Source of the DNA: Naegleria gruberi
Taxonomy: Eukaryota
Strand: one strand, 5' to 3'
Assembly: GCA_000004985.1 (NCBI GenBank)
Contig: GG738879.1
Length of the DNA stretch: 64,000 nt
Shown here: positions 102 to 64,000 of the stretch, piece after piece
Layout of the letters: each line of letters starts with the position of its first letter
How positions within the stretch are numbered: position 1 is the first letter of the stretch
The notes under the pieces: model-generated
What the model was told of the DNA's origin: nothing
Database searches by the model: none
Seen by the model: the letters and a program-made list of their open reading frames with translations, nothing else
Program-made: the position numbers and the translations under genes

Positions 102-3100
102 ATGAATGAGTTAAAAACAATGACAACTGAGAAGATTGATAAGGAACCTGAATATGTTTTTAATATGAAGGAAGCATCAGATAAAAAGTCAACAATAGTA
201 GATCAAAAGAAAGTTTGCCTCTGTACAAAATTAAGAGTATGCTATTACTATGAAGAAGGAGGAGTCACTCCAGAGGATGAGAGTAGATCTCCCAATTTAA
301 TGAGAAGTAACGATGATAACGTGCGAAGCAATTCTGAGCCATCACCAGTACATGGTGTCGAGTTGCATTTTGATAGATTTGTAGATGGTGCAGTTGTATA
401 TGGACCTTGGGGAGACCACCAGAGAGCATTGCTTCAAGCTTTCTTCTTCCCTCCTCTCTATGAGAATGCAAAGTACTATAGAAAAACAGCAGGACGACAA
501 AGAAAATCTGAAAAATTTGATGTTGAGTTCTATTTTAATGAAAAGACAACTTGGGTATTCCCTTTTATTGCAACACCAAAAACTTTAAGAGAAAAAAAAG
601 AAAATAAGGGCGACGAACAAATTTTGACAATGATTTTTGACAAGAATTCCTTCCTTCACTGGAGTGGTGATATGTATGCTTCTTTAGCAACTAATGAAAC
701 AATTACCAATATTGATTTCAATTTCCCAGGAATGAGTCTAATTACAAGCAATACGCAAGCCACCTTTGGTGAATCAGAGATAGGAAAAGGCCACTTCATT
801 ATGAGAAACTCTGCTGAATGGAATGGCAGAAAGGACTGGACTTTCAATTTTGAAGCAAACAAGTCTACAGTTTATTACACGGCAGGTAAGTTATCAATAT
901 ATTTTCTAATTCTAAAATCATTTATAGAACACATTGGATTCATTATGGATTTAATTAGGGATTGGAGAAATTATCCAAACCAAAAACAAGCAACTTTACT
1001 CGATTTTATTCCCTCTGTATATACATATAATTTTAAACTTTATAACTCAATGCTTAAGATGCATACTAACGACTTGAACATAGTGGAGTTTCCTAATGAC
1101 AGCTCCAAGAATCACTTTTTCTGTATTGATTACCCTCTAATGAGTATCAGTTTTACTGCTCCTGGAGAAGTTTTTTCCCCACCTTCTGTAGAATATTCAT
1201 TCAGTGTAGAGGTTAAGGGTGATGCACAAGTTGACCCTGGAGTACATATGGAATACCCAAAAGATCATCCTGTTCACGAAATGCAAATGGAACCAGGAAA
1301 AAAGTTTTTATGGGGCGAAAGAGCTCATGTACATGGAACCTATACAGTCCATGACAAAATCAATGTCGAAAATGTGGATTCCTGCATAATTAATGTTGAT
1401 TTATTCAATGTAAATTTAATGGTGAACGGATATCACCTCAATTATTTAATTACTATGTGGTTTGACCATTTCACTGCTGAAAGATTTTGGATGTCAGAAT
1501 CTGAATACATTGCAAATGGATATAAGAATGACAAGTCAAAGCAAATATCCAATTTACAATCCACTGATTTGTCGTCCATTCCTTATCCATCTAACCCAAC
1601 CGAATACTTTGTTACCATTAATATCAAACGAGGTATAGTACATTTGCCTCACTCTCTTTATTCGAGAGAAGAATGTACACAACTTATGGGTGAAGAATTT
1701 ACTATGGATATTAGATACGTACCTTCCAGTATTGATTTGTGTTTCAATCTTGGTCAACTTATGGCTGAAATACCAATTAACCCAGATGAAAAAGTAAGGC
1801 CTTCAAAGAAGTTTATTGGTTGTGAAGGAATCAAATTTTTAGCACAATTACCAATTGGACCAAATCCTGATGGGTTACTTTGGAGAAGAAAAATTCACTT
1901 TGATATTGGAGCAATAACTGGTGAAATCACTCCAAGTCAAATTGGTAATATTGTAAATATTGGTCTCAATTTTGTCTATCAGTGGAAATTGGCCTACTTC
2001 CCTAAACCTGACATTACTTTTAAAAAAAGTGATTATTCCAGAAGACAATATTCTTCTGAAGAGTTTGATGAATACTTGATTTGGGATGTTAGAGTAACCT
2101 TTGTTTCTATTTCTGCTGTCATTTCAATGACCAACGGTATGGTCAATATCGATTTAGACAAGGGAATTGATATTAATTTTGATTCACTCAATAATGGATC
2201 ATCCAATTCTAGGCTCAATGTATTGGTACCCTCCATACATGCCAGAATAATGAATGCAAGAGAAACAGGAATGAAAGTAGATGGTGATTGGGTTCAAATT
2301 GGAGAACTATTGTCTGGTCTTAAAGTTGGTATGGAAAAGAAAACTCACGACCTTAAAGAGCACTATTTCAGACAACAAAGGTTCATTCAAAATATGAACG
2401 GAGATTCGTTTGGATTGAATTTTAGTGCTGATAAACAAATGGAAACATCTCTTAACAAACGAGAGATGGAGACAAGTGCTTCAACAAGCAAGAAAAGGTC
2501 CAAAAAAAAGAATCCTTCAAAGAGATCTGTTGCTAAGACTACAACTGAAATTAGTGAAACAGATATTAGCGAAACAGACACAGATGCTGAATTTTTCGAT
2601 ATAGATGATGACGAATTGGAGCTGGAAGAGGAAGAAGAGAAGGTTCAAAAGGTCAGAAAAGTGTTTAATGGTCTAACTTTTCATGATACCGAACTGGGTA
2701 AAACAATTAGTGTAGACTATATTGATAGTATAATTTCAGAAGATGGAAGCCAATTTATAGAAAAGGATGTATTGGACGATAGAGCACAATGGAATCTTAT
2801 TTCGAAATCATCACCAAGTTTATCTACATATTCCAGTTATTTGAAAAATTATTACTATGAACAAGAAAGAGAAAGTCTTATGCCTTTAACATATAATGCT
2901 AAGCAATTTCTTACAGATAGATATCCTCACCATAGAATGGGAATGTACTCTCCTTTCCCTGAATATCACTTAAGAAGAAATAAGAATACTGAAGATTCAA
3001 ATGAGTTACTACCAATAGTATCAAAATTCAGCAAACTTGACATGAAAGATTTTAGAGGACAATTCTATTCATTTTCTTCTGGAAAGGACCGTGAGAATAT

Positions 3101-6100
3101 TGAGAGAATTTTGCAAATCGAAAGTAACTTTACCTCCCAAGAAAAAATTGATCAACAACATATCAACATTGAATTTTTAAAGAATATTGATATTAGCTTT
3201 TCACCAAATGTAATCTCTCTAGTACACCAATTAATCAAATATATAATACTTCCAGATTCAAACCTTCATGCTACAGCTGATCATATCGAAAAGTCAAAGA
3301 AAGTATTCCATCAGGATGTCCCAGAGGAATTATTAGAAGAGAAGAAAACTATTCCAAAATGGGATTTAAAGAAAATTATCTTTTCTGGTGGTGTTAAATG
3401 TGTTAATGTTAACGTTTTACAATCACTCTCTGTACCTAATATTATACCTGAGTCACCTTTACAAGGAACAGTTTCTGCATATTCTATCAAACTTTTTGCT
3501 ACTGATTTTGTAGCTTCTGGATCTGTAACTTTGAGAAAAGTGGAAGAGGAAAAGAAAGTAAGCTCTGAACTATTTTCTATTGAAGGTTTTGGAAAATGTC
3601 TAGAGGTTGGAGGTATTTCTCAGTGCTTAGATAGTAAAACATACCATTACAAAGGTATTGATCCTTCTGAGTTACCACTTTACTTCTTACAAAGGGTAAA
3701 TCTAATACCAGACGCACCAATAGTTGCAGCAATTCTTGTAGAGGACGTTCATTTCCAAGGTAAAAATAATATCAAGGAGGAAAACTCTCAGGGAAGATTT
3801 ACCTGTACAGTAGGAAAGCAAGGTTCTCTAGGATCAGGTGTTTCTGTACTCTTTACTCATGATATAATTGTAATTTCATATTCACTTGTAGAAGTGTGGA
3901 GAAAAGTTATCACAGATATGGTATTGAATGTTAGAAACTATTTGAGGTTACGACACGTCTATGATTTGCTACTACTTAGTCAAGTTTCAAAGAAAGCTGT
4001 ATCCAATACATCAGAAAACCTCTATGGAGTCTTGGAAAAAAAGCAAGCTTTGAAACATTTAAGAGCTTCTCTCTACTCTTTAACTTTTGCTGACTGTAGA
4101 AGTATTCAAAAGTTTATGCATTCTCATATAGGAATGGAAGTTGATTCAAAGGTAGAAATGAGAGCAATAAGAAATGAATACTCTGAATTGATAGAAGACG
4201 AAGACCATGCCCCTCAAATTCATACAAGCAAAACCTCTGTGAGATTGAGAACTGATATCTCTTTCCACTTGGAACGACTTGACCTTTCAGTTCATTCTGT
4301 TGATTTTAAAACAAAAGTTTACACAAAGAGTATTGCAAAGTTTAATGATATTTTAATGAGAGGAAAAGTAGAACATAGTTTGAATCCACTTTTCGAAACT
4401 GAGTACAAGAAATTTGAATCAGAAAATGCACAAAAGATAAGAGATATTTCTCTTATTTTATCAGTGAATTGTAGAGCCTTTAGTATTGATATTCACTCTC
4501 AAACTCTCATCCTTTTAACTTCAGCGCTTGGAGTATTCTTAATTGTTAAAAACAAACCTTTCATTAAAAAGTTGAGAGAAAAAGAAAAAAAGAACAAAAA
4601 CAAAAATCCTCAACAAAACCACGGAGAAATTAAGGAGATAACACACGATGTTTCTGCATCAACCCATGAACCAGAGGGTGAAAAAGAAATACCAGTGTAC
4701 CAAGAAAAAGTAGTCCTAAAACTGAATGTATTTACAAATGTTAATGTACAAAAAGCAACCGCTAGAGCATGGATGGACAAGAATAGTTTTGCAGAACTCA
4801 GTATTGATAAGTTTTCTCTACTCTTCAATCAACCTAAAAGCTCAGAAGAGCACATGCTAGCCATCAATAATGAGGAAAACAAGTCAGAGAAGAAGAGTAA
4901 TCTTAAAATGGTACATAGTAGTAATATTTCCATTAACAAAATTCTATTCCAGTTCAATTATACAACTCCTGAAAAAACAAACGAGAGAACAAAAGAGTTT
5001 ATTTCTCTCTTTGATGTTACTGTGAATGATATTAGACTTAATGAATTTTTATTCAAAGAAAAGGACTTGAATGTGCATGCCTATTTTGCATTTGATAAGC
5101 TTTTAATTAATCTTCCATTTGCTGATGTTTGGTCTGCATCTTCAGTACAATTTAGGCTGTTTGTGAAAACATGGTATGAAGCTATCAAAAGAAAGCCTAA
5201 TTTACCAAGCTTTGACATTTCAAAAGATTCTTCTCAACCAAAACAAGACCAAGAGCAACCCAAATCACCTATTAATTTCAATATTCCTGCAATTAATATT
5301 GTTCTTGATTTGAATGATATTTCTGCATACTTCAAGTTGGTAGATTCTTTCCAAATGAGATATAGTCTCACGAAACTAACAGCTCACTTCAAGCAAAATT
5401 CAAAACTTGACAATAACTTTATGGTACACTTGTTCCCGCATTCGTTTACTTTGAAATCAAAGAATGATGAAGAATTTCCAAACTCCAACAAGTGGGAAGG
5501 TCCAAGAAGCACAACACTTGGTTCGAATGAATTCAGAAAGATTTTCATTCTTCCTGAAGTTATTGTTTCTGGAAGTTTAGAAAATAAGGACAATAATGGT
5601 ACTACACAGAGAATACTTTCCACTTTAATAGCTATTGATTACTTTGAAAATGTGGTTACAAGTGATTTGTTAAATCATGTTATTGTCATTCAATCCGCTG
5701 TTACAAAAGAGATTAACAAGATCATTGAAAGCTTGAATAAGGGTGTTGAAGATTTAGAAAAAATCAAAAACGAATTACCAAAAGCTAAAAAGAATGTCAG
5801 ATCTCTCAATCTTTTCTTTGATGTAAAGCTTTTGTTTGAAGGAATTAGAATCACAGCTCTTGGACCATCTACAGCTCTGGTTGTTGACTCTGGATCAGTT
5901 AATGTTACAGCTTCCAACATTGAACATGTACGAGTCAAGATGTCACTCAAAGGTCTAAATATTAATATGGTAGACACCCACAACATCAAATGGGCAAGTA
6001 CAAGAAAGTACAACAATAGATATTCTGAAACAAGTGAGTGTTACCAGTGGGCCCAATTCCAATCAAACCTTCAAGTTCAAAACTTCCTGGATACTAAATT

Positions 6101-9100
6101 ATCTACAACAGACAAACAATCCACCAAGAATTTCACTCTCGATATTTCAAATACCCATCTATACCTTAGACCTGGATGTATAGAGCAAGCACTATTTTTA
6201 TTTAAAGATTACAAGCAATCAGTCCAAACTGTGTTTGAAAAGTTAAAAGAGGCTAGACAAAAGAATAGATCTGAAGCTTTAACTTCCCTCATCAAGACTG
6301 GAGAAGAATATTATTCATTATATTCTCATCAAATCAAAGAAAAAGTTGCTTCAGATGCTAGTACATTTATTAATTCAGGAGTGGTAAGAATTATGAATAC
6401 CACCCTATCTATGCCATTCGGAGATAATCCATACTTTGGATTCCTCACAAATGAGGGTCCTAATTTCAAACCTACATGCTGTTTACAAGTAATTATTCCA
6501 GCAGTTGGTCTCTCAACAATGTCAGAATCAGAAGATGATGTTAGTGCTACACTAGATACATTGATTTCAACAGGAAAAGACAGTGTTTCCAGTCAAAGAG
6601 TTGCCACTTGTAAGGTGAAGTCTATCAATATTTATCTCGATGAAAAACCCCTAAAGAAATCTAAATATTCCTTTAGTATGCCAACACTTCATGACTTTGA
6701 TCAAGCAAAAACAAAAGGAAAGATTGAGAAAATAATGATGAGCTTGAAGCTAAGAGTCACAACCAACGAAATCAATGGTTCTGGTGTTATTCATGTACCT
6801 GGTCCTGATTTGAATATTTCACCAGTTATAGTTAGAAGAGCTCTTGAACTTGGATATGATTGGTTTAATCCAAAACGAAAAATTTTCAATTCATATGTTG
6901 AATCTCCTAAGACCCAACCACAAAAACAAGACCAAGGTGTAATTACGCCAACGAAAGTAAGAGAACTCACAAAAAGAAAAATTTATTTCCTCATTACTGC
7001 CAACATTCAACCTGGTGTATTTAATTTAGTTCACAATATGACACCAAATACACTCGTTAGACGTAAAATTACAGACGAAACAGCTGTTGCAGTAGAAGGA
7101 AAATTGCCATCAGTTACAGTTACAGCCTTACACAAAAATCCAGGTACGAACACAAACCGATCTACAACACATATTCAAACAGGCATTCATTGGGATGGTG
7201 TTAAACTTCTTCCAAAATCATTATTCTTTGTATTGGAGGCAGTTCATGAGTTTAAACTTTGGTCAAAGGAAGAGCAAAAAAGAAGACAAAATTCTGCAAC
7301 CTACAAGTCAAAAGATCAAAATACTACCGAAATTGAGGATACCAAGGAGGTATTCAAACCTGTTGCATGGATGAGAATGCTTAAATCCGTTCTCCTTGTA
7401 CAAAGAATTTACAGAGGGTTTAGAGCAAGACAACTCGTTAAAAAACTCAGATCCGACAAGAACTTGAGAAGTACTTATCTTAAAAAAACAACAAAGAAGG
7501 AAATCAAAAAGAAAGAAAATGCTTCTCTCCAATCTGATTCCTTCAGTTTGCAATGTAGAATCAATCCTTTTAGAGTTGAACTTTCTTGCTTCCCTCTTGC
7601 AGAAACGGTTACTTGCTTTGAATTCACATCTCCATTCGATATTATTTTGAGTAGAACATTGAGAACTGTACAAACGGGTAATACCAAGGGTACTGCCATT
7701 TACCTTAACGTTTGCCTTTCTTGCCCTATTGCCTTGATAAGATGCTACCATCCTCTATCTCCTACACCATTTGTTATTTTGACAGTAGCAGGAATTATTG
7801 GAAACTTGGGCAGTGGATTTGGAAATTATCTTAGATCTGATGACACTCCGGTATATTCAGGAACTCTTCACGTAAAAAAGGTTTCAGTAGAGGTTAGTCT
7901 ACCACAAATGAACCACTTCTTTATTATGTACACAATTTGGATGGATAAATATGAAGAAGCCAGGAAGTCTCTCAAGATTGTAAGAGGAGATATCAAAACA
8001 ACACCTAAAACTCAATTAGTTGTTCTGACGAACGAAGAGAAAGAAGAGAAAGATCAAAAGAGAAAGAAAATTATTATGGAAGAAATATCCCTTGAATCTA
8101 CCTCATCTAAATTTGGTCAATTATTAATCTCCTCATTCGAAATTGTTAGTGATATGGGTCCAACTCTTGGTAAGCAGAAATTGTATGCTGAAGAAATTTC
8201 CTTGTTCTGCAAAGATAAGGGACGTATAGTTAATGAAATTGAAAGAGAACCATTACATATTGGTGGATACTTAGGAAAATTTGAGGGAACATTTGTTGGA
8301 AGACTTCAAGGTAATATATCGATGAATGGTATTGTAGTTGGGCTAAATAGAACATTCAAGAAAGGAGGTTCATCTCCTACGTATAAGGGATCTAGTGAAG
8401 TGTTTATTACAGCTTTACCAACTCTAATAGATTTGGAGCTCAACTCTGCCAAGATACTCAACATCTCACTCAACACATTATCCATTACATTCTGCGATAT
8501 ATTTGACTCTACAGATGGTAGACAATACCATGTGGAAACATCTGTAAACTCATCTGGAGCAACAGTTCGTCTTTCTAAAATATCTGCATCTGCTTTCATA
8601 TACGTATTCTATAAGATCAAAGAGTTAGCCACTGAAAGAAAGAAAGCTGCATTAGATACTCTCCAAGGATCTGTTAATTTTTATAATACAGAGGATGCCT
8701 CTGAAAAAGAAACAGAAGAAGAAAAATCATTCGAAATCAAATCTCTAAAAATTCAATCTCCAACGAAACAATTTTTATCACTCATTCCAATTGGTGATAT
8801 AGTTTTTAAGGGTGTAAATCTCAAAGTTTACCTTTATGAAAAGTTTACAGTTGAAAAAGATCAATTCGTTCCAGCAGGAGATTGGTTAGAGTTTGGAATG
8901 GATGACTACCAACTAAAGTTCAAACGTAAAGGACTTATGGAGGATAAATCTGTAGAAAGGTCACTGACATTGTTTTTAGCCAAAGTAGCTCTGGATAGAA
9001 TGACTACTCCAAACAAGCGATCATTTATTTTGGAGGTCCCTGGAGCTCACTTAACAATGAACTCATTACAAACAAGATCTATTCCAGATGTAATTAATTA

Positions 9101-9545
9101 TACATTCAAAACCAAGTTCCCTAAGGCCATTACAGTCACCACCAATTTGAATGAATATACATTCTTACAAGGTTTGATGAAGCTCTACAAATCAGAAGTT
9201 ACAAACGAATTGGAGGAACATAAGAAATCTGTACAACAACAATCATCATCTGTAATTTCCCTCACTTCTCAAAAACAAACAACAACAGATACTCAAATAT
9301 CCATATTTGGAATTCCAAAGAGAAAATTCGAAGGTACAATTCAACTAAATCCTAAGCTAAATGTTTTAGGAGATTTAACTCCTCAAGTTCAAACAGTTTT
9401 GTCATGGCTTGGAATTTCTGAAAGTATTATACCAAGAGCAGCTCATGAAGGAGTATCTGACTCTCTTGAGTCAATATTTATCATTTGTTATAGAGCTTCT
9501 GAATTGATGGATAATTTATTTGTTGAATCAACTTATGAAAAATAA
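102..9545 (+). CDS. Giant (>=3147 aa) protein of unknown function; IQ-like motif present; one probable short in-frame intron (about 886..927); may start upstream of window
   Basis: Uninterrupted 9.4-kb ORF in AT-rich DNA. GTAAGT...TTTATAG element of 42 nt at about 886..927 encodes an odd hydrophobic stretch and is a multiple of 3, so frame cannot decide. In-frame stop at 33..35 and an AG at about 39..40 leave the 5' end open. IQ-like LVQRIYRGFRARQLVKKLR near residue 2440. No P-loop, HECT, BEACH or FATC signatures recognised by eye. Confidence 0.55.
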   Translation: MNELKTMTTEKIDKEPEYVFNMKEASDKKSTIVDQKKVCLCTKLRVCYYYEEGGVTPEDESRSPNLMRSNDDNVRSNSEPSPVHGVELHFDRFVDGAVVYGPWGDHQRALLQAFFFPPLYENAKYYRKTAGRQRKSEKFDVEFYFNEKTTWVFPFIATPKTLREKKENKGDEQILTMIFDKNSFLHWSGDMYASLATNETITNIDFNFPGMSLITSNTQATFGESEIGKGHFIMRNSAEWNGRKDWTFNFEANKSTVYYTAGKLSIYFLILKSFIEHIGFIMDLIRDWRNYPNQKQATLLDFIPSVYTYNFKLYNSMLKMHTNDLNIVEFPNDSSKNHFFCIDYPLMSISFTAPGEVFSPPSVEYSFSVEVKGDAQVDPGVHMEYPKDHPVHEMQMEPGKKFLWGERAHVHGTYTVHDKINVENVDSCIINVDLFNVNLMVNGYHLNYLITMWFDHFTAERFWMSESEYIANGYKNDKSKQISNLQSTDLSSIPYPSNPTEYFVTINIKRGIVHLPHSLYSREECTQLMGEEFTMDIRYVPSSIDLCFNLGQLMAEIPINPDEKVRPSKKFIGCEGIKFLAQLPIGPNPDGLLWRRKIHFDIGAITGEITPSQIGNIVNIGLNFVYQWKLAYFPKPDITFKKSDYSRRQYSSEEFDEYLIWDVRVTFVSISAVISMTNGMVNIDLDKGIDINFDSLNNGSSNSRLNVLVPSIHARIMNARETGMKVDGDWVQIGELLSGLKVGMEKKTHDLKEHYFRQQRFIQNMNGDSFGLNFSADKQMETSLNKREMETSASTSKKRSKKKNPSKRSVAKTTTEISETDISETDTDAEFFDIDDDELELEEEEEKVQKVRKVFNGLTFHDTELGKTISVDYIDSIISEDGSQFIEKDVLDDRAQWNLISKSSPSLSTYSSYLKNYYYEQERESLMPLTYNAKQFLTDRYPHHRMGMYSPFPEYHLRRNKNTEDSNELLPIVSKFSKLDMKDFRGQFYSFSSGKDRENIERILQIESNFTSQEKIDQQHINIEFLKNIDISFSPNVISLVHQLIKYIILPDSNLHATADHIEKSKKVFHQDVPEELLEEKKTIPKWDLKKIIFSGGVKCVNVNVLQSLSVPNIIPESPLQGTVSAYSIKLFATDFVASGSVTLRKVEEEKKVSSELFSIEGFGKCLEVGGISQCLDSKTYHYKGIDPSELPLYFLQRVNLIPDAPIVAAILVEDVHFQGKNNIKEENSQGRFTCTVGKQGSLGSGVSVLFTHDIIVISYSLVEVWRKVITDMVLNVRNYLRLRHVYDLLLLSQVSKKAVSNTSENLYGVLEKKQALKHLRASLYSLTFADCRSIQKFMHSHIGMEVDSKVEMRAIRNEYSELIEDEDHAPQIHTSKTSVRLRTDISFHLERLDLSVHSVDFKTKVYTKSIAKFNDILMRGKVEHSLNPLFETEYKKFESENAQKIRDISLILSVNCRAFSIDIHSQTLILLTSALGVFLIVKNKPFIKKLREKEKKNKNKNPQQNHGEIKEITHDVSASTHEPEGEKEIPVYQEKVVLKLNVFTNVNVQKATARAWMDKNSFAELSIDKFSLLFNQPKSSEEHMLAINNEENKSEKKSNLKMVHSSNISINKILFQFNYTTPEKTNERTKEFISLFDVTVNDIRLNEFLFKEKDLNVHAYFAFDKLLINLPFADVWSASSVQFRLFVKTWYEAIKRKPNLPSFDISKDSSQPKQDQEQPKSPINFNIPAINIVLDLNDISAYFKLVDSFQMRYSLTKLTAHFKQNSKLDNNFMVHLFPHSFTLKSKNDEEFPNSNKWEGPRSTTLGSNEFRKIFILPEVIVSGSLENKDNNGTTQRILSTLIAIDYFENVVTSDLLNHVIVIQSAVTKEINKIIESLNKGVEDLEKIKNELPKAKKNVRSLNLFFDVKLLFEGIRITALGPSTALVVDSGSVNVTASNIEHVRVKMSLKGLNINMVDTHNIKWASTRKYNNRYSETSECYQWAQFQSNLQVQNFLDTKLSTTDKQSTKNFTLDISNTHLYLRPGCIEQALFLFKDYKQSVQTVFEKLKEARQKNRSEALTSLIKTGEEYYSLYSHQIKEKVASDASTFINSGVVRIMNTTLSMPFGDNPYFGFLTNEGPNFKPTCCLQVIIPAVGLSTMSESEDDVSATLDTLISTGKDSVSSQRVATCKVKSINIYLDEKPLKKSKYSFSMPTLHDFDQAKTKGKIEKIMMSLKLRVTTNEINGSGVIHVPGPDLNISPVIVRRALELGYDWFNPKRKIFNSYVESPKTQPQKQDQGVITPTKVRELTKRKIYFLITANIQPGVFNLVHNMTPNTLVRRKITDETAVAVEGKLPSVTVTALHKNPGTNTNRSTTHIQTGIHWDGVKLLPKSLFFVLEAVHEFKLWSKEEQKRRQNSATYKSKDQNTTEIEDTKEVFKPVAWMRMLKSVLLVQRIYRGFRARQLVKKLRSDKNLRSTYLKKTTKKEIKKKENASLQSDSFSLQCRINPFRVELSCFPLAETVTCFEFTSPFDIILSRTLRTVQTGNTKGTAIYLNVCLSCPIALIRCYHPLSPTPFVILTVAGIIGNLGSGFGNYLRSDDTPVYSGTLHVKKVSVEVSLPQMNHFFIMYTIWMDKYEEARKSLKIVRGDIKTTPKTQLVVLTNEEKEEKDQKRKKIIMEEISLESTSSKFGQLLISSFEIVSDMGPTLGKQKLYAEEISLFCKDKGRIVNEIEREPLHIGGYLGKFEGTFVGRLQGNISMNGIVVGLNRTFKKGGSSPTYKGSSEVFITALPTLIDLELNSAKILNISLNTLSITFCDIFDSTDGRQYHVETSVNSSGATVRLSKISASAFIYVFYKIKELATERKKAALDTLQGSVNFYNTEDASEKETEEEKSFEIKSLKIQSPTKQFLSLIPIGDIVFKGVNLKVYLYEKFTVEKDQFVPAGDWLEFGMDDYQLKFKRKGLMEDKSVERSLTLFLAKVALDRMTTPNKRSFILEVPGAHLTMNSLQTRSIPDVINYTFKTKFPKAITVTTNLNEYTFLQGLMKLYKSEVTNELEEHKKSVQQQSSSVISLTSQKQTTTDTQISIFGIPKRKFEGTIQLNPKLNVLGDLTPQVQTVLSWLGISESIIPRAAHEGVSDSLESIFIICYRASELMDNLFVESTYEK

Positions 9546-19109: not shown

Positions 19110-22100
19110 ATGAGTCAAGTTTGTTATAAGAATCGTAAAGGAGATGCGGAGGATGAATTTTCGAGGTTTTCTTCCTTCACTCTTGACCATACAACACTTC
19201 GGAAGTTGTTAGTAAATTATGGTGAATATCCTTCAAAATATAGAATGCTAATTTGGAGGTTTTTATTGAATATTCCTGAAAACAAAGAGTCCTTTGAAGT
19301 ACTCTACTCTAAGGGAATTCATTTTACTCAGTACAGCCTTCACAAACGATATCCAATAAGTAATTCATCAATATTTAGGAAAATACAGAGAATCATTTCA
19401 GCTATGGCAAATCTATCACCAATTTTTGGTGCCGTGGAATATTTGCCTGAATTAATATTTCCGTTCTTAAAAGTGTTCAATCAAAGTAGCTCAACTATCT
19501 TCGAAATAGTATTAACATTCTTTGGTATGTAACAATACTTTAAAATTACGTATTAATTGATTGAATAGTTAATTGGGGAAAGGAATGGTTTGAATTCTTC
19601 CCTAATCCACCAGCAACTGTTCTTAACTATGTTGCTTCCTTGCTTCAAATTTATGACAATGACGTACTGGAGCATTTGTCATCTCTTGGGGTGTCTTCTG
19701 CTTCTTTTGCTTGGCCAATGTTAAAAAGCTTATTTACTGAGCTCTTTACAACTGATCAATGGCTAAGAGTATTTGATCATATATTTTCTAATCCTCCCTC
19801 TTTTATATTTATGTTTATTGTATCATATCTGAATTATTTTAGGAGAAGTCTTTTCCAAATTAAAGAAAGAAGAGAAGCAGAAAACTTCTTCCACAGTATT
19901 CACGCTTGTGATCTTGAAAAGATTCTAGCTTTTGCTTATGACATTCAAAAAACTCAATATGAAAGTTCTGTACAAAAGTTGATTGCCAAATCATATGGTT
20001 CATTTAGTTTCTTGCCGAAAGGTCATTATAATATTTCTATTCGCTTTCCTGAATACTCTGTAGATTATCAATTAAAGCAAAGAGAAAGAATTGTAAAAAG
20101 TGAAGAGGATTTTGATAGAGCCAGAAACAATTATATTCAATTGAAAAAGCATAATGAGGAGTTTGAAATAGAGCATAGGAACTGGTTAATAAGACAAAAA
20201 GCATTAATTGAAGTAAGCAAAACGCAAGAAGAAGCTTCAAAGAAAATGGAAAGAGAAATATTGGAGGAAAAAGAGAGAGTTAGACAAATGGAATTGGAGG
20301 AGCGCTTAAAAAATGTAGAATACTTGCAAGAAAGAAGAAAGATGTTAGCCAATTTACATGAGGCTGAATTGAATGCGAAGACATTAAATCAACAAAGATA
20401 CATGGAAAATCTAACAATTGACACACATAATGAGATCAAACACAAAATGACGGAAATGCAATTAGGGGAAATCGAAAAAATGGAGCAAGCTAAATTGCAA
20501 GATATTGAGTGTTTCGTAAATCCTCCATCCAATTACTATTTTACAAAGAACCCATCTGCAACTTCACCAAGAAAACCAGAAACTGTAAATATCAAACCAC
20601 TTGCAAAAGAGGTTATTATCCCTGTATTTATCCCACCTGAACAGGCAAAACAGCCAGTTTCAGAAGCGATAACAAAGGACACGACAGAGATTAACTCTCC
20701 TGAAATGTCAGAGCCGAATTCTAAAGAATCAAGTTTTGCAGATTGTCTTCAAGTGCATCTACTAGGAAATGAAATTAATTCCTTAGAAAAAGAAATAGAA
20801 TCAACAGGAAAGAATCTGACTCCAAAAGATATCAAACTTCAGGCCATCATACAACCTGAAATCCCTCAAAAGAAAAAAGTGAAAAAAAAGAAAAAATTGG
20901 TAGAAAAGTCTAATGAACAAACATTAAAACAGAAGAAGAAAGAAGCATCTCCAAAAAAGGCTGTTACACTTCCTTCGCTCAAACAGATGAACTCACGAAT
21001 GAGAAAACAAAACAAAAAGTATTACCAGAAAAGCAAAGGCAAGCAAAATCTCCAAAAAGAAAGAGCCCAAAGAAGAAGGAAATCAAAGAAAGCAATCTTA
21101 AGGAGAAACCACAAGAAATGGTCACCCCGTTAGGTCATACTTCCCAAATTTCAACAAGTTCAAACTCATCCCAACCGGATGAGGATCGATTCAGATTATT
21201 ACAAGAACAAATATCAAAACAAAAATCAGAGCTCAAAAAATCAGATAGGACTATGAAACATATTGAATCGATTGCATCAAACATTTCCAAACCATCAAGT
21301 AAATCCTTCAAACATTTCAAGGAGTATTTCATCATCCCCATCTATTGAGAGCTTAAAGAACACCAATGTTTTTAATAGGTTTGATTATTTAAAGAGCGTA
21401 GATTCTAGAGTTGATGATTTAATTCAAAAGAAGTTTAAGGAGTTTATTACAAGAAAGGTTGAACAACCAAGAGAAAAGAGTTTTAATGTTGAAGAGCAAA
21501 ACCTTTCGTTCCCTACAAGCATATCAAACACAAACAGCGCATCAATACTTAACTCCTCTGCATCAACACAGTCACCAAATCCAACACGAAATAGCACTCT
21601 CAGAGGAACAATATCTGCCACTCTTAACCCAAGTTTTTCTCAAACTTCTTACTTGGCTCCTTCTTCATGTATTGATAAATCCAGTGACAATGAGAGCTCT
21701 TCAGATGTGAACTCTTTATTAAGACATAGTAGCGAATTTGAGACAACATCCTCTAAAAGAATGAACCTTTCTTCTGATTCACATTTATACTCAGCATCCC
21801 CAAGATCCTATTCTGGAAGTTCAGGTTACAAATCGAAGACTACAACAGGTACATCCGGATCTCATGTAATTAATGCATATGTTTCCATTTCTGAAGCTCC
21901 TTATCATACCAAGACATCAGATGAAATAGTTAATGAGATTTCAGATACAAGAAGTATTGATGAATTACTTGAGAGTTTCAACACGTCCTATCCTTCAATT
22001 TCAAGCAGTATAGAATCAATTAAGATCAAGCCACAAGACTATTCCTCCCTTGATCTAAGTTTTTTTAGTGACGAAGATGAAGTTACGACAAGTGTAAATA

Positions 22101-22132
22101 CTTCAGCATTAATGACAGAAAAAGAATTTTAA
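19110..22132 (+). CDS. TBC (Rab-GAP-like) domain protein lacking catalytic Arg/Gln fingers, with long coiled coil and S-rich tail; first intron 19525..19568; frame changes near 20900..21350
   Basis: RxxxW motif (YRMLIWRFLL) and TBC C-terminal half (WLRVFDHIF) but no IxxDxxR or YxQ. A 44-nt GTATGT...AATAG intron joins track ORFs 19110.. and 19640... Downstream the long open frame switches twice (track ORFs 19640.., 21118.., 21263..), compatible with a 60-nt intron about 21298..21357 or with indels in the A/K-rich run. Confidence 0.55.
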
Positions 22133-25100
22133 TTCTTAATAAATTTCTCAGCTTCAAGTTCAGCATCAACATTGTGAGTTTCAATAATAGGTATTGGTTG
22201 TTGGTTTTGCTTCATGTTATCGTCTCCTATTGGAATAACAATATCATACTTATCAATATCTCGTTTCATACTCTTAGACATTTCTTCTAAAGAGATGTCC
22301 GTTTCGTTTGGAATAGGATGTTGGTAATGTTTCTCTTTGAGAATGTAGGTAGTAATTTGTCCTTTACCTTTGATTTCAACACCTTTTCTCTCATCGAATT
22401 CAAAGATATCATAGACTCTTTCGTAGGTTTGTCTGGTTACTTGGATTTTACCTGGAATACCAGTTGATTCCATTTTAGATGCAAGAGTAACATTTTCACC
22501 CCACAAATCATAAGCAAATTTCAATGTACCAATACAACCAGCAATTACACTTCCTGTGTGTAACCCAATTCTAATATTTAAAGTTGTTTTCTTTTCTAGA
22601 TTATACGCATAAATAACAGAATACATCTCCATAGCAAATCTTAATACTTTTTCTGGATGGTCTGATTGTTGAAGATGTAAACCTCCAACACAAAAGTAAG
22701 CATCACCACTAAATTGTAATTCAGATTATTATCTAATTTTCAAGCAACTTACATTGTTTTAATTTTTTCGAGTCCAAATTTGCTAATACCTCTATCGAAT
22801 CCGTTAATAATAGCATTCAACATTTGAATCAAATCAATAGCTGACATGCCTGATGACATTTTGGTAAAGTTAACCATATCACTAAATAAGCAAGTGGTAT
22901 CATCAATTTTTTCTGAAATGTAGGTTTCACCAGCTTTTAACTATTATTTTACAGTAAATGTTCAATAACAAAACTTACTCTTGCAGCTACTTGCTCAGGA
23001 AGAATATTCAAAAGTAAAGAATCACTCTTCTTCTTTTCTTCTTCAATTAACATATTATGTTTCTTCTCTGAAGTGATATCTTTGATAAACAAACTGATTA
23101 GGTTACTCTTTTCAAATGATGAGACACTCATGGATACTTGAGCAGGGAATGTTGTTCCATTCTTTCTTTTAGCTTCCACCTCAAAAGACTCTCCATAACT
23201 TCTTATGGCATTACCCATCGATGTTACTGTATCTCTTATCTTATTAGAGCTTGCATCTGTAAATAAAAGAGATGGTGGCTTTCCTAATATTTCATCAGCC
23301 TTATAACCCAACATATTCAAAGCACTTGGATTGATAATATCAACAAACCCTGTTTTGCTATTCAACACAACAGCTCCATCAACAGCAGCATCTACAAAAA
23401 GTTTAGAACATGAGCAGGCTTGAAAACTTACCCAAAATAGCTTTTGTCTTTGAAAATTTCTCTCCTTTTGCAGCCTTCTTACCATCAGAAAATGTAAAGT
23501 ATAAAATATAGTTCCTAATCTCCTCGAATTGCTCCAAAACATCATATTGAATGAAATTAAACATCCTTCTTAATTGGTGGTTTTCATTATCGAATCTTTT
23601 GACTTGTAAATACTTTGTGTAAGTCAATATAAGTAATATTGCAACAGAAACGCTTGTTATTGCTGGACTGATAATTCTAGTAGGTGATTTGTAAGTGTCT
23701 ACATATCCAGTAAGTACAGAATACATTTTGGAAGTGAATTCACTGGAAATGGCAAAAATTCCAATAAATCTTTCTACCAAAACACTATTAATATATGTAT
23801 GTCTGTATGCATCCTCATTGAATCTATCTGCTGATAAAGTATATGCATCCATGAGTTGATCCAATCCATAACAAGTGTAGTTTTCTGCAGTGCAGTTTTG
23901 GCTCAAAATCTTGATATCTAAAGAAGAAACTCCTGTTATGCCAGAAAATCCATTCTCAATTGTACCGTAACGATAATCTAACCAGGCTTCCATCATCTGT
24001 TGTGAATGTTGAATTATTTCATCGTGGAATGATTTCATGCTAGTTTGTAATATTGAAGAGTCACCTAATAAAAGTTCTCCAAGTTTAAATTTAGCTCTTT
24101 GTGAAATTTGTAATACCTTTGTACCATGCTCTACCTTTAACATAGTGTTGAATGAAGTCTGCATCATGTCCAAGCACTCATAAAGGAGTAAAGCACTTGC
24201 AATAGCAGTGAAGAGGAAAATAGCAATAATGAGTGCTGAAATTATTCTCTTAGGAGTGAAAATAGATTTTTGGATTTTCACAATCTTATCCTCGGATTTT
24301 TGTTCCAAATGGTGAAATACTGTACCCACAATATCCTTAGGAAGCTTTGCAAAAAGCTTTGTTAATTTTTCCATATGAAGTAAGTGAATATAAGAGAAAA
24401 TTGTGTAGACAATAATGAATAGCACGTATACCACAAACACACCAACAAGGGTAAAAATGAAAACATTCTTTTCCTGATTAAGAAAAGTGTCACTTCTTGC
24501 GATCAAAGTGCCACAAAAACTTTCCAGACCACCAGTAATGGCTATTCTGTTTAGCCATATATACAAGAACTCATAATTTTCATAAATATTCATGTAATCA
24601 TCAAGTTTCCAAGCATATAGCTTTGTAGCAATAGTGTGGAGCTCATTTGTAATATCAGATAAGGAAGTATTTTTAGGGGTTGATATAAGACTGGATACAG
24701 ATCCTGTTTGTAGTACTGGAACAAGAACTATTTTGTCTGCATAAACAAACTGCTTCATACTCTCTACCTCAAATCTTTGTTCGTTCATAATATCTTTAAC
24801 CTTTTGTGTAATTGTCACTATGCTCTTAACTCTTGCCTTGTGGTTTGCCCATTCTGATTTAAATCTATTGGTAGTGTTGGTTGGAGATAATATCTGAATG
24901 TACCTAATACCTGAAAGAATTAAGTAGGGAACAGGAGACACTTGGCAAAATTGATTTACAGTAGTAATACGGTCGCTATCATCTGCAAGTCCCAGATTCA
25001 ACCCTAAAACAATTGCAATAATAGCAATTGATATAAATCCCAATGATTGAAGGAAAATAAATTTCTTTTTGCTTTCGTTTGGCTTGTTGATGGCTGACCT

Positions 25101-27120
25101 GTATATAGTTTGTTTGTCTTTTTTGTAATCTCCATATTGACTAGCTGATTCCAAATTTTCCATATCGTTCTCATCTTGTTTTGGTTCTAAGTAATTTGGA
25201 CCATCATCTACATAATTGACAGGTAACACCTTGTTGCCTGGTAAATTACGTTTCTTAAATTCTGACTTTGAGTCAGAGGAAAATCTTCGTTTCTTTGATT
25301 GTTCATCCTCCAAAATGTTTGCTTCAGCATAAAATTCATCTGCCAATTCAGCTTCAAAAAGGAATTCTTCTAAAAACTTTGCATAGCTTCTCAATACTTG
25401 GGCGTTATTATGGAAATTAACAAGTAAGTTATTGAACGTTGTACTTGAATTTTCCATGTATGTGTGCATCATTTTAACCAAACTATATACCTTTTCCGAG
25501 TTTTCCTCATTAGACACAAAGTGTTTCCAGAATAGCTTTTGATATTGTCTTAATCTTTCCTGTTGTTTCTCCACAGTGTCAAGAATGTGTCTAAGTTCTA
25601 AAGAATTTTTTCCTGTTGAAATTGAAGCCTCTATTTCCTTAGTTCTTTGGTAAACAAGGTAACGTAATACAAGATTAGAGTTCTTTTTACCTGCCTTTGC
25701 AAGTAGGTGAAGGCAAAAGCTTGGTGAATATTGATCTCCCATCATTTTCTTAAATATATATAAAGATGAAATTATCAGAGTGTAGGTATCTAATTCTAAT
25801 CTTTGATTTGTAGCAACCTTTATCAAGTTGGTTATTAACTCATCTTCTTTAGTTTTGATAGAGAATTTCAAATATAAGTTTAAAAATTTTGGATTGACTA
25901 ATTCATTAACACTAGTTTGAACGGTGATATTCTCGTTCTTGAAATCAGTTAATCTTCTTCTGACATATCTCATAACTATCTGTGTATAAATTTCAACAAT
26001 AGAAAATCCAATAAAGAAAAATATAATCACAGAGCCAAATCCAACACCAAAAAGATAACCCAAACCAACATCTTCACTTACAGGATCATTCGCTACAATG
26101 GCCAGTATGCTGGATATTGCAGCACCTGCTTTAGATAAGTACAACCCACCAAAAATCGAATTCACAATTCTATAGTGAAATGGTAAATCATAAATTAGAA
26201 AACCAAATATAAGGAGTGTGAAAAATAAAAAGAGTAAAGGTCTTGCAATAAATGCTTGGGGTGGTAATATTTGAGAAATGATTAAGTGGATTTGGTTGAT
26301 TACTACAGCAGAAGCAAATACAACAGGGCTGTCCATACTTAGCCAAGACTTACCCTCAACCCATGTGTCACACGATAGAAGTATTCCAAGAAATGTGAGA
26401 GGTAATTGTAATATCATAAATAAAAGTGATATGGCTGCAAAGGAACCATTTAAAGGACTCCAACAACCTATGGTAGGAAACCTTCTTAGAGCATATTGAG
26501 CAACTCCATCCACTACTAGACCTTGTTTAGAATAATCACAAGCCCAAAAAGCGGTCAAGCAAAATACAAATCCAAGTCCGAACACTCCAAAGAACATGCA
26601 TATAGCTCTAATTGTATTCTTGATTTTTGATGAATGCTTACTTCCTCTATGAAGAGCTTTATAAGCATAGTAGATTGCAACCAGAGCTATCAACTCTAAC
26701 ACAGCAAGTATTACAGCAACGGCAAGAAAGAGCTCATAAGGATACCAACTGGCACCTAATGTTCTTGGAACTGCAATAATCCTAACACCTAATTTTGCAG
26801 ACTCACCCCAATTAAATTCTAAGATGGTTAATAAATACATTATTTCAGGAATACTTACCAGACTCCCAACCTAGAGCTATTGATTGCTCGACCAATACTA
26901 TATTCAATAATATGAAAAGCCAATTTGGTAATGCTTTTGGCAATTTTATAGAAACTAGAAAGAAGAATAATGTATCTTCTAATTTTCCAACAATACTACT
27001 ACCCCGAGTGAGGGTTGTATTACTAGTTTTTGATCTACTAGAAGAGCCTTTTGAAAAAACCGACTCTCCATCATGTCCTACGGGTGAATGATCACTAGAG
27101 TCTCGCATCGAGTAGGCCAT
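22129..27120 (-). CDS. Multi-pass transmembrane class III adenylyl cyclase with PAS domain and a single cyclase homology domain; 5 exons: complement(22129..22708, 22753..22940, 22979..23391, 23432..26818, 26859..27120)
   Basis: Four short introns (40, 40, 38, 44 nt; GTAAGT/GTAAGT/GTAAGT/GTAAGT...AG) join track ORFs 26845.., 23403.., 22949.., 22129.. in frame. About 1609 aa with 6-7 N-terminal TM helices, three further TM segments, a PAS fold (VDGAVVLNSKTGFVDIINPSALNMLGYKADEILGKP...RKNGTTFPA...IKDITSEKK), then the CHD (LLNILPEQVAARLKAGE...FSDMVNFT...KIKTIGDAYF...IGLHTGSVIAGCIG...YDLWGENVTLASKMESTG). Lys in KIKTIGD and Asp in YDLWG are the adenine-specifying pair. Confidence 0.8.
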
Positions 27121-57179: not shown

Positions 57180-60100
57180 TTAAAGATATTTGACTAATAA
57201 CTTGACATCATGAACTTGTTTGTTAATTCTATAAAATGGTCTTAATGTTCTACCCAATAATTCAAGTTGTTCATCTTCTCCTTGTTTGAAAATGAAATAC
57301 TTGTAACAATCAATTGGATTCCATTTCAAATTCAAATCACAAATTAATTGAGATTCTTCCAAGGTTGATTCATTGAATGACTTAGTAATTTCAACTTGTT
57401 CAATTGGTTTCAAGTTCAAATCTAACAATTTTTCACCAATATTCAAATAACCTAATTTCATTGCATAATAATCTTCTTCATTACTATCAATAATGGAATG
57501 TTCATCAGAAGGTGATGGAGTTGAATCACTTTGAATACAATCAATATAAATATTTGTAATTTCATCATCGAATTCAATAATATTATTCAAAGAATAAGTT
57601 TTTAATATCCAACCACCATTCATCATTTCAGATTTAACATTTTGATCCATTTTACTCAAATCAATTAAACCTAATTTTACAGTTTCAATTAATAAATGTA
57701 AAGAAGAATATTTTTCATTAAATTCATTACTATATTTAAATGCATATTGAATATTTGTTATATTATTATTTAAATTATTATTTAAATTATTTAATTTAAT
57801 ACTAGTTTTAAATAATTTAAATCTTGTTAATTTTACTTCATCTTGATTAAATTTTCCATAAAATTCTAAACAATTTCCACCTAAAAAGGAATCTAAATAA
57901 TTAAAATTCCAATTAATTGAATATTCTTGTCCAATATTTAAAATTTTATAATTTCTAAAATTAGGTAATAAATCTTGTTCAGAAATATCATTCCATTTTA
58001 ATACATTTTGATTATTTCCATAAATGTAATAATTTAATCCAACACCTGAATTAAAAAATGTTGAAAATAAATTTTTAATTAATTTTTCATTTAAATAATT
58101 TGAATTATTTTCATTTTTACTTTTTAATTTTAAATTTAAAGAACAATTTGAAATTCTTGATCCAAAATTTCCCGCCCAATTTTCAACATCCTTTCCACCA
58201 TGTTCCCAAATTATTGTTTTAATTAAATTTATATTTTTTAAAATAAAATTAAAATTAATACATTTCCAATTAGAGTTACAAATAATTTCACCAGAATTAA
58301 ATTCTTTAATAATTTTATCATTTTTATCTAAAAATTTAATTTTTAAATAAAATAAATCTTGACAATTTGGTTCAGTTCCTTTTATCCAACATTTTGCATT
58401 TAAAATTAAATTATTTAAATTATTATTATTTCCATTTATATCAATTTCATTTAATATAAAAGGTAAATTAATTAATTGTTCCATTTTTGACCAATTAAAA
58501 GATGAAATAAAAGATTTTGATTGATTAAAATCATTATTTAAAGATTTAATCCAATTTCCATTTATATTCCAACCTTCAAATTCATTTAATTGTCCATTTC
58601 CATTTTTTAATAATTCAATAATTTTATAATTTCCATTCCAAAATAAATTTTCAATATTTTCATATTCATTTCTAATTAAATTTAAATTTTCAATATTTTC
58701 TAAATTTGTAAAATTATTAAAATAATTTTCATAAATAAAACCTGGAGCAAATAAGGCAATAGATGTTTCATATTTGTTAATTTCATTTAATGCTATTTTA
58801 GTATTAAATTGTCCACCACCATATTGTCCTCTACCAAATATATCTATACCTGTAAATATTTTATATTTATTTAATTTTTTATTTAATTTTAAATTATTTT
58901 CTATTAAAATATTTTGTAATAGATTTAAATTATTTAAATTATTATTATTTTGTAAATTATTTTCTAATAAATTAATAAAATTATTTAAATTAATTAAAGA
59001 ATTATTTAACATTTCAGGTTTCCAATTATAATTTAAAAAAATTCCATCACTTTCATTTAAAAAAATTAAATTTTTTTCATTTAATTCATTTTGCCATTTT
59101 AATTCTCCATTTGGATAAATAATTGAATCATACCAAATTATTTTAGAATTTTTAATTAATTCTTTACATTTTAATTTTAAATATTTAATAAAATTAATTA
59201 ATTTTAAACATAAATCTTGATTTAAATTACATTCTATATTTAGAAACCATCCATCAAATTTATAATAAATTGCTAAATTTATCAAATAATCAGCAAATTG
59301 TTCATAATTTCCATTTAAAATTTTAGAAATTTCTTTACTTCCTTCATCCCATTCAAAAATTAAATTTCCTAAAACTAAAATTCCATTTTTATGTGCAATT
59401 TCAGTCCAACCAACAGGTGGTATTGTAATTCTATTTAATATTTAATATATTTAATATTATATAATATTTAATATTTAAAATAAATTTAAAAAATAAAAAA
59501 AACAAACCTTTCATGACTAAAATAAATAAAAATATCAACAAATTGCCAATAATTAAAATTAAAAGTTAAAAAATCATTTCCACTTTGAATAAATTTATCA
59601 TTTAAATATCCACCTTTCATATCATGACATAAAATTACTTTTTGTCTATTTTTAGTAAAATTATTTTTAAAATTAATTTTAGCAATATTTAAATCATCTT
59701 TAAAATTAAATTCTTGATTAATTGAATAAATTGGTTCTGAAATTATTTTAAATGGTTCATTAGATATTTCTAAAGATGGAAATGAATAATTAAAATTAAA
59801 ATTAAAAATTTCATTTGAAAAATAAAAAAATAAATTTTGTAAAATTCCTTTAAATGGTTTTGAATTTTCTAATTTTGGTGGAATTATAAATGGATTAAAA
59901 TTATTTATAATTGAATTTAAATTATTAAAATTTAATTCTTGTTCATATTCTAATTTATTATATTTAGTAATTTTAATTAATAATTTATTTTTAAATATTA
60001 ATTGAATATGATACCATTTATATAAATTAAAATTATAATTAATTATTAAATCATTAATTATTAATTTGTTATTTAAATATGTTGATAATTTAATTAATAA

Positions 60101-63354: not shown

Positions 63355-63405
63355 TATTTTTTGAACATCACATTAATATAATTTATTTGTTCTTTTTGTA
63401 ATAAA

Positions 63406-64000
63406 TTATAATTCATCTTTATTTTCTAAAGCAATAATTGAATTTGTCTCATCAGATAATTTCCATTCCATATTATTTTTATCATTTTTATCATTTTTAT
63501 CATTTCCATTATTTTCATTTTCATTATTTTCATTTCCATTTTCATTATTATTTAAATTAGATGAAGGTAATAAAAGTTTAAAAGGAATGTCTAAACATAA
63601 ATGTTCAATCATTTCTCTTCTTTGTGGATCATGTTCTAATTGTTGATATTTATAAATTCTTAAAGTAGCTTCATGTGTACCATTTAAAATGGAATATAAA
63701 GGTCTTTCTATATTAATATGATATGTTTTGTTTAAATTTATAATTGGACAATTTGAATCTTGTAATTTACAATTAATTTCTAAATTATTTTTAGATTGGT
63801 TTCCTAAAAAAGAACCACAACAAATATCATATGGTCCTTTATATTTAATTTTTTGACCTGTTTCTTCATGCCATAATTCTAAATTATAAAATAAATGATT
63901 AGTTTCCATAATTGGTTCATTAAATTTAATATCCATTTCAATTTTAACACCAGGTGTATTATATCTAGTAGGTACAATTGTTAAATGTGAAGTAATTAAT
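63406..64000 (-). CDS. Hypothetical protein, 3' part only (gene continues beyond window end); very A+T-rich with N/E/K-rich tail
   Basis: Minus-strand reading stays open through 64000 (...YNTPGVKIEMDIKFNEPIMETNHLFYNLELWHEETGQKIKYKGPYDICCG...). Confidence 0.45.
   Translation of the reverse strand, partial: LITSHLTIVPTRYNTPGVKIEMDIKFNEPIMETNHLFYNLELWHEETGQKIKYKGPYDICCGSFLGNQSKNNLEINCKLQDSNCPIINLNKTYHINIERPLYSILNGTHEATLRIYKYQQLEHDPQRREMIEHLCLDIPFKLLLPSSNLNNNENGNENNENENNGNDKNDKNDKNNMEWKLSDETNSIIALENKDEL

Follow-up and report, generated by a model that had tools for sequence, protein, structure and literature searches.

Can a membrane cyclase with a single catalytic domain per chain make cAMP on its own? 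The question is raised by a minus-strand gene in a 64,000-nt stretch of Naegleria gruberi DNA (contig GG738879.1), referred to here as the window. The predicted product of 1609 amino acids (aa) joins a multi-pass membrane part to a PAS domain and one class III cyclase homology domain (CHD). An earlier interpretation made from the letters without database searches (the sequence-only reading) had taken it for a self-contained adenylyl cyclase that must homodimerise. We found that the CHD keeps both metal-binding Asp residues and has Thr and Lys at the positions of the transition-state Asn and Arg of the canonical NxxxR motif. We give an even chance to the reading that the protein is the metal-donating half of an adenylyl cyclase that works only as a heterodimer and has a single active site, a reading drawn from comparison with other cyclase sequences. 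The gene is already deposited, uncharacterised, as NAEGRDRAFT_69664 (XP_002675302.1).

Catalytic residues of the cyclase domain

The sequence-only reading had reported both metal Asp residues, a Lys/Asp specificity pair of adenylyl type and a Lys in place of the catalytic Arg. The alignment bears out all three, with D1375 and D1419 at the metal positions, K1415 and D1484 at the base-specifying positions and Lys1495 at the Arg position; the phosphate-binding Arg1463 and Lys1532 are present as well. Judged by these residues, the predicted specificity is adenylyl-type, not guanylyl-type. The transition-state Asn, also reported as present, is not. In the HMMER alignment of YDLWGENVTLASKMES from the window protein with YDIWGDTVNIASRMDT from the C2 domain of AC9, Thr1491 stands at the Asn position and Lys1495 at the Arg position. 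The Asn noted earlier belongs to an ENV motif two residues upstream of the aligned Asn position and is Thr in the orthologues. This one CHD does not hold all six canonical catalytic residues, since Asn and Arg are both replaced. The N. lovaniensis and N. fowleri orthologues share the TxxxK form of the N. gruberi motif (both YDLWGETVTLASKMES), and the Willaertia orthologue has IxxxK (FDLWGETVIVGSKMES).

Eight functional positions were scored across 193 aligned CHD segments. The signature of the window protein at these positions is DDKRDTKK. The canonical DDKRDNRK is complete in 122 of the 193 segments, and Asn and Arg are both kept in about 160. Outside the clade of the window gene, the family members whose aligned CHD covers the motif all keep the Asn, and all those that reach the Arg position keep the Arg, except P0168, whose model breaks off there. 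The window gene, its deposited model and its orthologues aside, Thr takes the place of this Asn in a single N. gruberi paralogue, P0157, and the P0157 model is cut short at that point.

The replaced motif sits in a well-conserved domain. Identity to the N. lovaniensis and Willaertia orthologues is 87% and 72% in the CHD and 97% and 84% in the linker that precedes it, as compared to 67% and 54% over the whole protein. These are the highest values in the protein; the linker is its most conserved part and the CHD its best-conserved large domain. Because its identity lies above the whole-protein average, the CHD is under selection and not decaying.

By comparison with cyclases that have two unlike catalytic halves, DDKRDTKK is the signature of a metal-donating half. 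In the two-CHD fish AC7, C1 reads DDKRDTH (metal-donating) and C2 reads SSKRDNRK (the N/R half). The corresponding halves of a two-CHD Paramecium guanylyl cyclase are DDYRDLK and DKEKSNR, and those of a two-CHD Phytophthora adenylyl cyclase are DDERHSF and EAERKNR, the metal-donating half being given first in each case. In the chytrid protein NeoR, T455 and K459 replace NxxxR; NeoR is inactive alone and forms heterodimers with RGC1/2 that have one catalytic site (PMC12264004, PMC7655827). Since TxxxK together with intact metal Asp matches the non-catalytic halves of heterodimeric cyclases, the window protein is likely the metal-donating half. With Thr and Lys in place of the transition-state Asn and Arg, its homodimer would be at best a very poor enzyme.

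The window protein would provide Asp1375, Asp1419 and Arg1463 as the C1-like, or NeoR-like, half. Its partner would be a paralogue that keeps NxxxR and provides Lys, Asp, Asn and Arg. Of the two sites in such a pair, one would be competent to convert ATP to cAMP, and the other would be doubly degenerate and might bind a regulator. Both homodimers would be defective.

A paralogue clade with the opposite defect

The closest paralogue clade has the same architecture and the opposite defect, having lost the second metal Asp and kept K/D/N/R. At the second-Asp motif, Willaertia ABK040_006184 (P0143) reads KIKTIQEKYF and N. lovaniensis C9374_012229 (P0295) reads KIKTIGEKYF, both with Glu at the Asp position and both with N..SRMES kept. 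The N. gruberi member, NAEGRDRAFT_60042 (P0168), reads KIKTIQSKYF, with Ser at this position; its Asn is kept and its model stops just before the Arg. The mammalian C2 residue at the second metal position is also Ser. The specificity residues of the clade are Lys/Asp, not Glu/Cys. In a neighbor-joining (NJ) tree of 48 family members with 100 bootstrap replicates, the clade of the window gene has a bootstrap value of 100 and the paralogue clade one of 98. They fall into one group in 78 of 100 replicates (49 + 29), whether or not the chimeric P0157 joins them. N. gruberi, N. lovaniensis and Willaertia each have members of both clades, and the NAEGRDRAFT_60042 clade would be the most likely source of the partner. 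The claim that the protein must homodimerise as a self-contained enzyme is not supported: TxxxK with the metal Asp is the pattern of a non-catalytic half, and the sister clade is complementary to it.

The P0157 (NAEGRDRAFT_45297) and P0168 models break off in the CHD, after WGETLTIAN and DAVNAAS, and continue in unrelated sequence (total lengths of 1673 and 2426 aa). Both are probably chimeric annotations, and P0157, which also has Thr in place of the Asn, is possibly another C1-like paralogue. Degenerate metal sites with NxxxR kept also occur in P0024 (N. lovaniensis C9374_002008, DEKRDNRK), P0201 (NAEGRDRAFT_71755, DTERDNRK) and P0221 (Pharyngomonas, TEKRDNRK). Asymmetric pairing may be more widespread among heterolobosean cyclases.

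More tentatively, and with rather less than even confidence, we propose that a 12-transmembrane (TM) receptor cyclase was duplicated in Naegleria and Willaertia and that complementary losses, of NxxxR in one copy and of a metal Asp in the other, produced an obligate intermolecular heterodimer in which one site is active and the other is degenerate and potentially allosteric. If true, this would be an independent re-invention of the solution found in C1/C2, sGC alpha/beta and NeoR/RGC. Two different helical-bundle sensor modules, probably extracellular, would be integrated at one catalytic center. Combinatorial pairing would then be a means of signal integration in these amoebae, among them N. 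fowleri, a pathogen in which the window gene has an orthologue. The orthogroup of the window gene is the conserved TxxxK exception in its family and the sister orthogroup is its mirror image, which makes this a concrete two-gene hypothesis. If the heterodimer hypothesis fails, the protein simply adds another uncharacterised enzyme to a class that is already known and large.

Alternative readings of the activity

Several points weigh against a heterodimer. The proposal rests on sequence comparison. The sisterhood of the two clades is moderately supported (49 + 29 of 100 replicates). In 2/3 orthologues of the proposed partner the second metal Asp is replaced by Glu, a residue that could still bind metal, and the same change from Asp to Glu occurs in the short N. 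lovaniensis paralogue P0024, so it is not unique to the partner clade. In N. gruberi the partner model, P0168, is chimeric and ends just before the expected Arg. In N. gruberi and N. lovaniensis the two genes do not share a scaffold; the Willaertia pair shares one 520-kb contig but is about 45 locus tags apart. Restoring N and R in NeoR gave no activity, so other determinants matter (PMC12264004). Perhaps, too, Lys partly replaces Arg and Thr hydrogen-bonds the ribose, which would yield a slow homodimeric enzyme.

A first alternative, the sequence-only reading, is an adenylyl cyclase that is active as a homodimer without any partner, controlled by the PAS domain in the cytosol and with Lys1495 replacing the catalytic Arg. 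The presence of both metal Asp, the Lys/Asp pair, Arg1463 and Lys1532 is in agreement with this view, as are the strong conservation of CHD, PAS domain and linker and the canonical family members, which are presumably homodimers. We nevertheless consider it rather unlikely: both transition-state residues are changed (with Ile for Thr in Willaertia), the change is conserved in the orthologues, TxxxK in NeoR leads to an inactive homodimer (PMC12264004), and a PAS domain that lacks His, Cys and Trp and has Ile at the position of the FixL heme His (PMC10468136) is a poor candidate for the gate. The loss of NxxxR could also mean that the domain is a dead pseudo-cyclase, in which case the protein would be a receptor, a scaffold or a nucleotide-binding regulator and might dampen canonical paralogues via poisoned dimers. 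NeoR T455N/K459R did not regain activity and such domains can degenerate further (PMC12264004), as this account would have it. However, D1375, D1419 and R1463 are strictly kept in the best-conserved large domain, which would be unexpected without a catalytic contribution, and a pseudo-cyclase is improbable. A guanylyl or dual-specific cyclase is very improbable. We found no point that supports it, the Pfam family PF00211 includes both activities, and the base-specifying residues are Lys/Asp rather than Glu/Cys in the window protein as well as in the proposed partner clade.

Comparison with known cyclases

The nearest parallel to the proposed heterodimer is NeoR, which is likewise a single-CHD membrane protein with the metal Asp kept and Thr...Lys for NxxxR, and whose partner is a paralogue encoded by another gene, the pair having one active site and one that is degenerate and possibly regulatory. 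NeoR differs in its rhodopsin sensor and its cGMP product (Glu/Cys), whereas the window protein has a 12-TM TmcB-like module, a PAS domain and Lys/Asp. No catalytic residue is missing from the RGC partners of NeoR, but a metal Asp is missing from the proposed Naegleria partner, and heterodimerisation has been shown for NeoR and is inferred for the Naegleria protein.

With the mammalian transmembrane adenylyl cyclases (AC9, AC5, AC8) the window protein shares the class III CHD, the Lys/Asp adenine specificity and a total of 12 TM segments. Its DDKRDT(K) corresponds to the C1 signature DDKRDTH, and the D-S-K-R-D-N of the proposed partner to the C2 signature SSKRDNRK. The window protein has one CHD per chain, its TM segments are arranged 8 + 4 around a cytosolic TPR region, not 6 + 6, and a PAS domain precedes the CHD; G-protein or forskolin regulation is not evidenced for it. 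The PAS-linker-CHD cassette is shared with cyanobacterial GAF-PAS-CHD adenylyl cyclases (CyaB1-type; Microcoleus), which are homodimeric. These differ in being soluble, in their GAF domains and in keeping the canonical NxxxR. Dictyostelium TmcB ('tiny macrocysts protein B'; PF25474) has the TPR_TmcB region and, as we presume from the name of the Pfam family, a multi-pass membrane module, but TmcB-type proteins lack the PAS-CHD output.

Gene model and splicing

The coding sequence starts at an ATG at 27120 and ends at a TAA at 22131-22129. Spliced, it comprises 4830 nt and encodes 1609 aa with zero internal stops. There are five exons and four introns, and every intron has the form GTAAGT...TAG. 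In-frame splicing, the orthologue alignment and the presence of the same introns in the deposited model uphold the four introns of 38-44 nt with AG acceptors and the 1609-aa minus-strand protein of the sequence-only reading, which had counted four coding pieces where we found five. Across the four junctions the protein aligns without gaps to the N. lovaniensis, N. fowleri-cluster and Willaertia orthologues, and it aligns end to end with those of N. lovaniensis (67% identity, 98% coverage) and Willaertia magna (54% identity, 95% coverage). Such alignments argue against a chance splice model. In addition, the metagenome open reading frames (ORFs) P0003 and P0142 run into intron 2 at exactly the same point. 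On the alignment evidence, the gene is real and correctly spliced. That it is a gene-model artefact or a pseudogene, with pieces that belong to separate transcripts, is hardly credible: the deposited model has two extra introns and ours was derived from the genomic sequence, but the junctions are in frame, collinearity with orthologues in four species is full-length (54-67% identity) and the segments skipped by the deposited model are conserved.

The link to the deposited gene comes from a near-identical ORF fragment, P0142, that falls in one cluster with XP_002675302.1 (NAEGRDRAFT_69664) of N. gruberi, which is annotated as a "predicted protein" of 1471 aa. This model shares all four introns with the 1609-aa model and additionally removes aa 200-303 (26172-26483) and aa 334-367 (25980-26081). 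Both removed stretches are in frame and GT..AG-bounded, contain TM4-6 and TM8, and have amino acid sequences that are conserved in the orthologues of N. lovaniensis and Willaertia and in the European Nucleotide Archive (ENA) metagenome relative P0003. Because the removed stretches are in frame, hold TM helices and are conserved in all orthologues, the 1609-aa model is the better one. Judged by this conservation, XP_002675302.1 is probably 138 aa too short, and our model corrects it.

P0142 itself comes from a 5765-bp ENA contig. It encodes 771 aa identical to the window, with one difference in the read-through of intron 2 (SSLFMF, as compared to SSLLMF in the window). It probably originates from another N. 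gruberi strain or assembly.

Domain and membrane architecture

From the N to the C terminus the protein has eight TM segments, a cytosolic TPR_TmcB region, four TM segments with two long loops, the PAS domain, a linker helix and one CHD (Table 1). Pfam recovered both the PAS domain and the single class III CHD of the sequence-only reading: Guanylate_cyc matches with E 1.3e-55 (188 bits), and PAS_9 and PAS with 59 and 34.6 bits, each over its cut-off. The best PDB match of the CHD by phmmer is AC9 (E 6e-72). Residues 1329-1355 of the linker show a sub-threshold Pfam match to the C-terminal helix of HNOBA.

Hydropathy and the helices of AlphaFold 2 (AF2) models give 8 + 4 TM segments, more than the 6-7 + 3 counted before. 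The difference matters for topology. Three late TM segments would put the PAS-CHD part and the TPR region on opposite sides of the membrane; with four, both would be cytosolic. The earlier statement that the domain order is unlike that of the classical 2x6TM two-CHD cyclases holds, with one CHD and the TM segments arranged 8 + 4. A second CHD was not found in the window by tblastn, so the partner is not a neighboring gene.

Table 1. Features of NAEGRDRAFT_69664 in window coordinates; amino acid positions refer to the 1609-aa model.
Feature	Position	Strand	Remarks
Whole gene NAEGRDRAFT_69664	22129..27120	-	5 exons, 1609 aa; in frame, collinear with orthologues
Exons	27120-26859, 26818-23432, 23391-22979, 22940-22753, 22708-22129 (stop included)	-	
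Intron 1	26819..26858	-	40 nt, GTAAGT..TAG
Intron 2	23392..23431	-	40 nt, GTAAGT..TAG; just inside the PAS domain start, after KAIL
Intron 3	22941..22978	-	38 nt; within the PAS-CHD linker helix
Intron 4	22709..22752	-	44 nt; within the CHD metal/substrate motif, KIKTI/GD split at the slash
N-terminal 8-TM block, aa 67-364	25989..26922	-	Hydropathy; AF2 helices (low confidence); orthologue conservation
Cytosolic TPR_TmcB region, aa 494-596	25293..25601	-	Pfam PF25474, 45.2 bits (cut-off 27)
Four-TM module: TM9 674-692, TM10 873-891, TM11 946-964, TM12 1136-1154	23619..25061	-	
PAS domain, aa ~1217-1323, exon 3	23072..23391	-	PAS_9 aa 1223-1323, E 5e-16
Linker/signalling helix, aa 1326-1362	22917..23065	-	Split by intron 3
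Class III CHD, aa 1363-1541	22336..22916	-	Split by intron 4; Pfam Guanylate_cyc PF00211
Metal Asp1375 (FSD)	22878..22880	-	
Second metal Asp1419 (IGD)	22702-22704	-	
Lys1415	22758-22760	-	Base-specifying
Asp1484	22507-22509	-	Base-specifying
TxxxK (Thr1491...Lys1495)	22474..22488	-	Replaces catalytic NxxxR

The two long loops of the four-TM module (residues 693-872 and 965-1135, about 170-180 aa each) bear N-glycosylation sequons, and in the second loop Cys1063 and Cys1070 are invariant in a 7-sequence alignment. In the AF2 model of the cropped segment aa 660-1165 (predicted local distance difference test score, pLDDT, 76.6; predicted template modeling score, pTM, 0.70), the four TM helices extend into helical bundles. 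The AF2 model of the full exon 2 is poor (pLDDT 58.7), and the fold comparison uses the cropped model only. Foldseek against the PDB, run with the exon-2 and cropped models, gave no match at E<0.001, only weak TTYH and TPR matches. The bundle has no sequence similarity to bacterial four-helix-bundle/NIT sensors (Tar, Tsr, PcaY, NarQ, TorS, NasR), none of which is matched by Foldseek at E<0.001, and generic bundles, talin and de novo designs among them, reach scores close to those of the bacterial sensors. The window bundle also differs from those sensors in being built from two loops of a single chain. The two-loop helical-bundle module is probably extracellular, and a sensor-like role for it is plausible.

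The PAS domain as a probable transducer

The sequence-only reading had proposed a ligand-, redox- or light-gated PAS sensor. The PAS domain contains no His, Cys or Trp anywhere. Its best PDB relatives are the heme-PAS domains of FixL, matched weakly (E 2e-4), and the residue aligned to the heme-ligating His of FixL is Ile. A proximal His is the main determinant of heme binding in PAS domains (PMC10468136). Heme or LOV-type sensing is unlikely because the domain lacks His, Cys and Trp. Two specific candidates were rejected: a heme-PAS of the FixL/DosP type, for want of a His and with Ile at the aligned position, and a LOV-type flavin-adduct PAS (NCRFL motif), for want of a Cys. The domain may bind a small-molecule ligand. 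It is more likely a transducer or dimerisation module, with the membrane/helical-bundle module as the sensor, and on the same residues the bundle module replaces it as the better sensor candidate. Input would probably pass from the helical-bundle module through TM12 to the PAS domain and on to the linker helix, with the PAS domain acting as a transducer or dimerisation module without a cofactor.

A large family in Heterolobosea and Amoebozoa

A full HMMER search with the membrane module returned 168 representatives, at least 45 of which also carry a PAS domain and a CHD in proteins of 1500-1700 aa. The layout occurs in N. gruberi, N. lovaniensis, N. fowleri, Willaertia and Pharyngomonas and in the amoebozoans Mastigamoeba, Mastigella and Cavostelium; the family also includes a full-length relative without a cyclase (P0147). 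By this distribution, the architecture belongs to an old, expanded family and is not a singular system. Naegleria has among the largest cyclase repertoires of eukaryotes, with at least 81 cyclases in the pangenome of the genus (PMC9928731). TmcB-like-PAS-cyclases appear to be uncharacterised: among the papers searched, none describes the architecture and none is relevant to TmcB ('tiny macrocysts').

Outside Heterolobosea, the closest relatives of the PAS-CHD cassette are cyanobacterial GAF-PAS-CHD cyclases (Microcoleus and other Oscillatoriales), with about 45% identity over 86% of the query. That the nearest relatives of the cassette (22336-23391) are cyanobacterial rather than eukaryotic is a hint that this output cassette came from bacteria.

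Other features of the window

A Ser-rich 289-aa ORF on the plus strand (21263-22132) ends 4 nt inside the stop region of the cyclase gene (22129-22131 on the minus strand). The two are convergent with overlapping ends, leaving essentially no intergenic space. Two stretches of the window, at about 58000-60000 and 62000-64000, have a G+C content of 15-19%, as compared to about 33% elsewhere, and contain many short AT-rich tandem repeats; the ORFs listed in them may be composition artefacts. At the other end of the window, one unbroken ORF of 3147 aa occupies positions 102-9545 on the plus strand.

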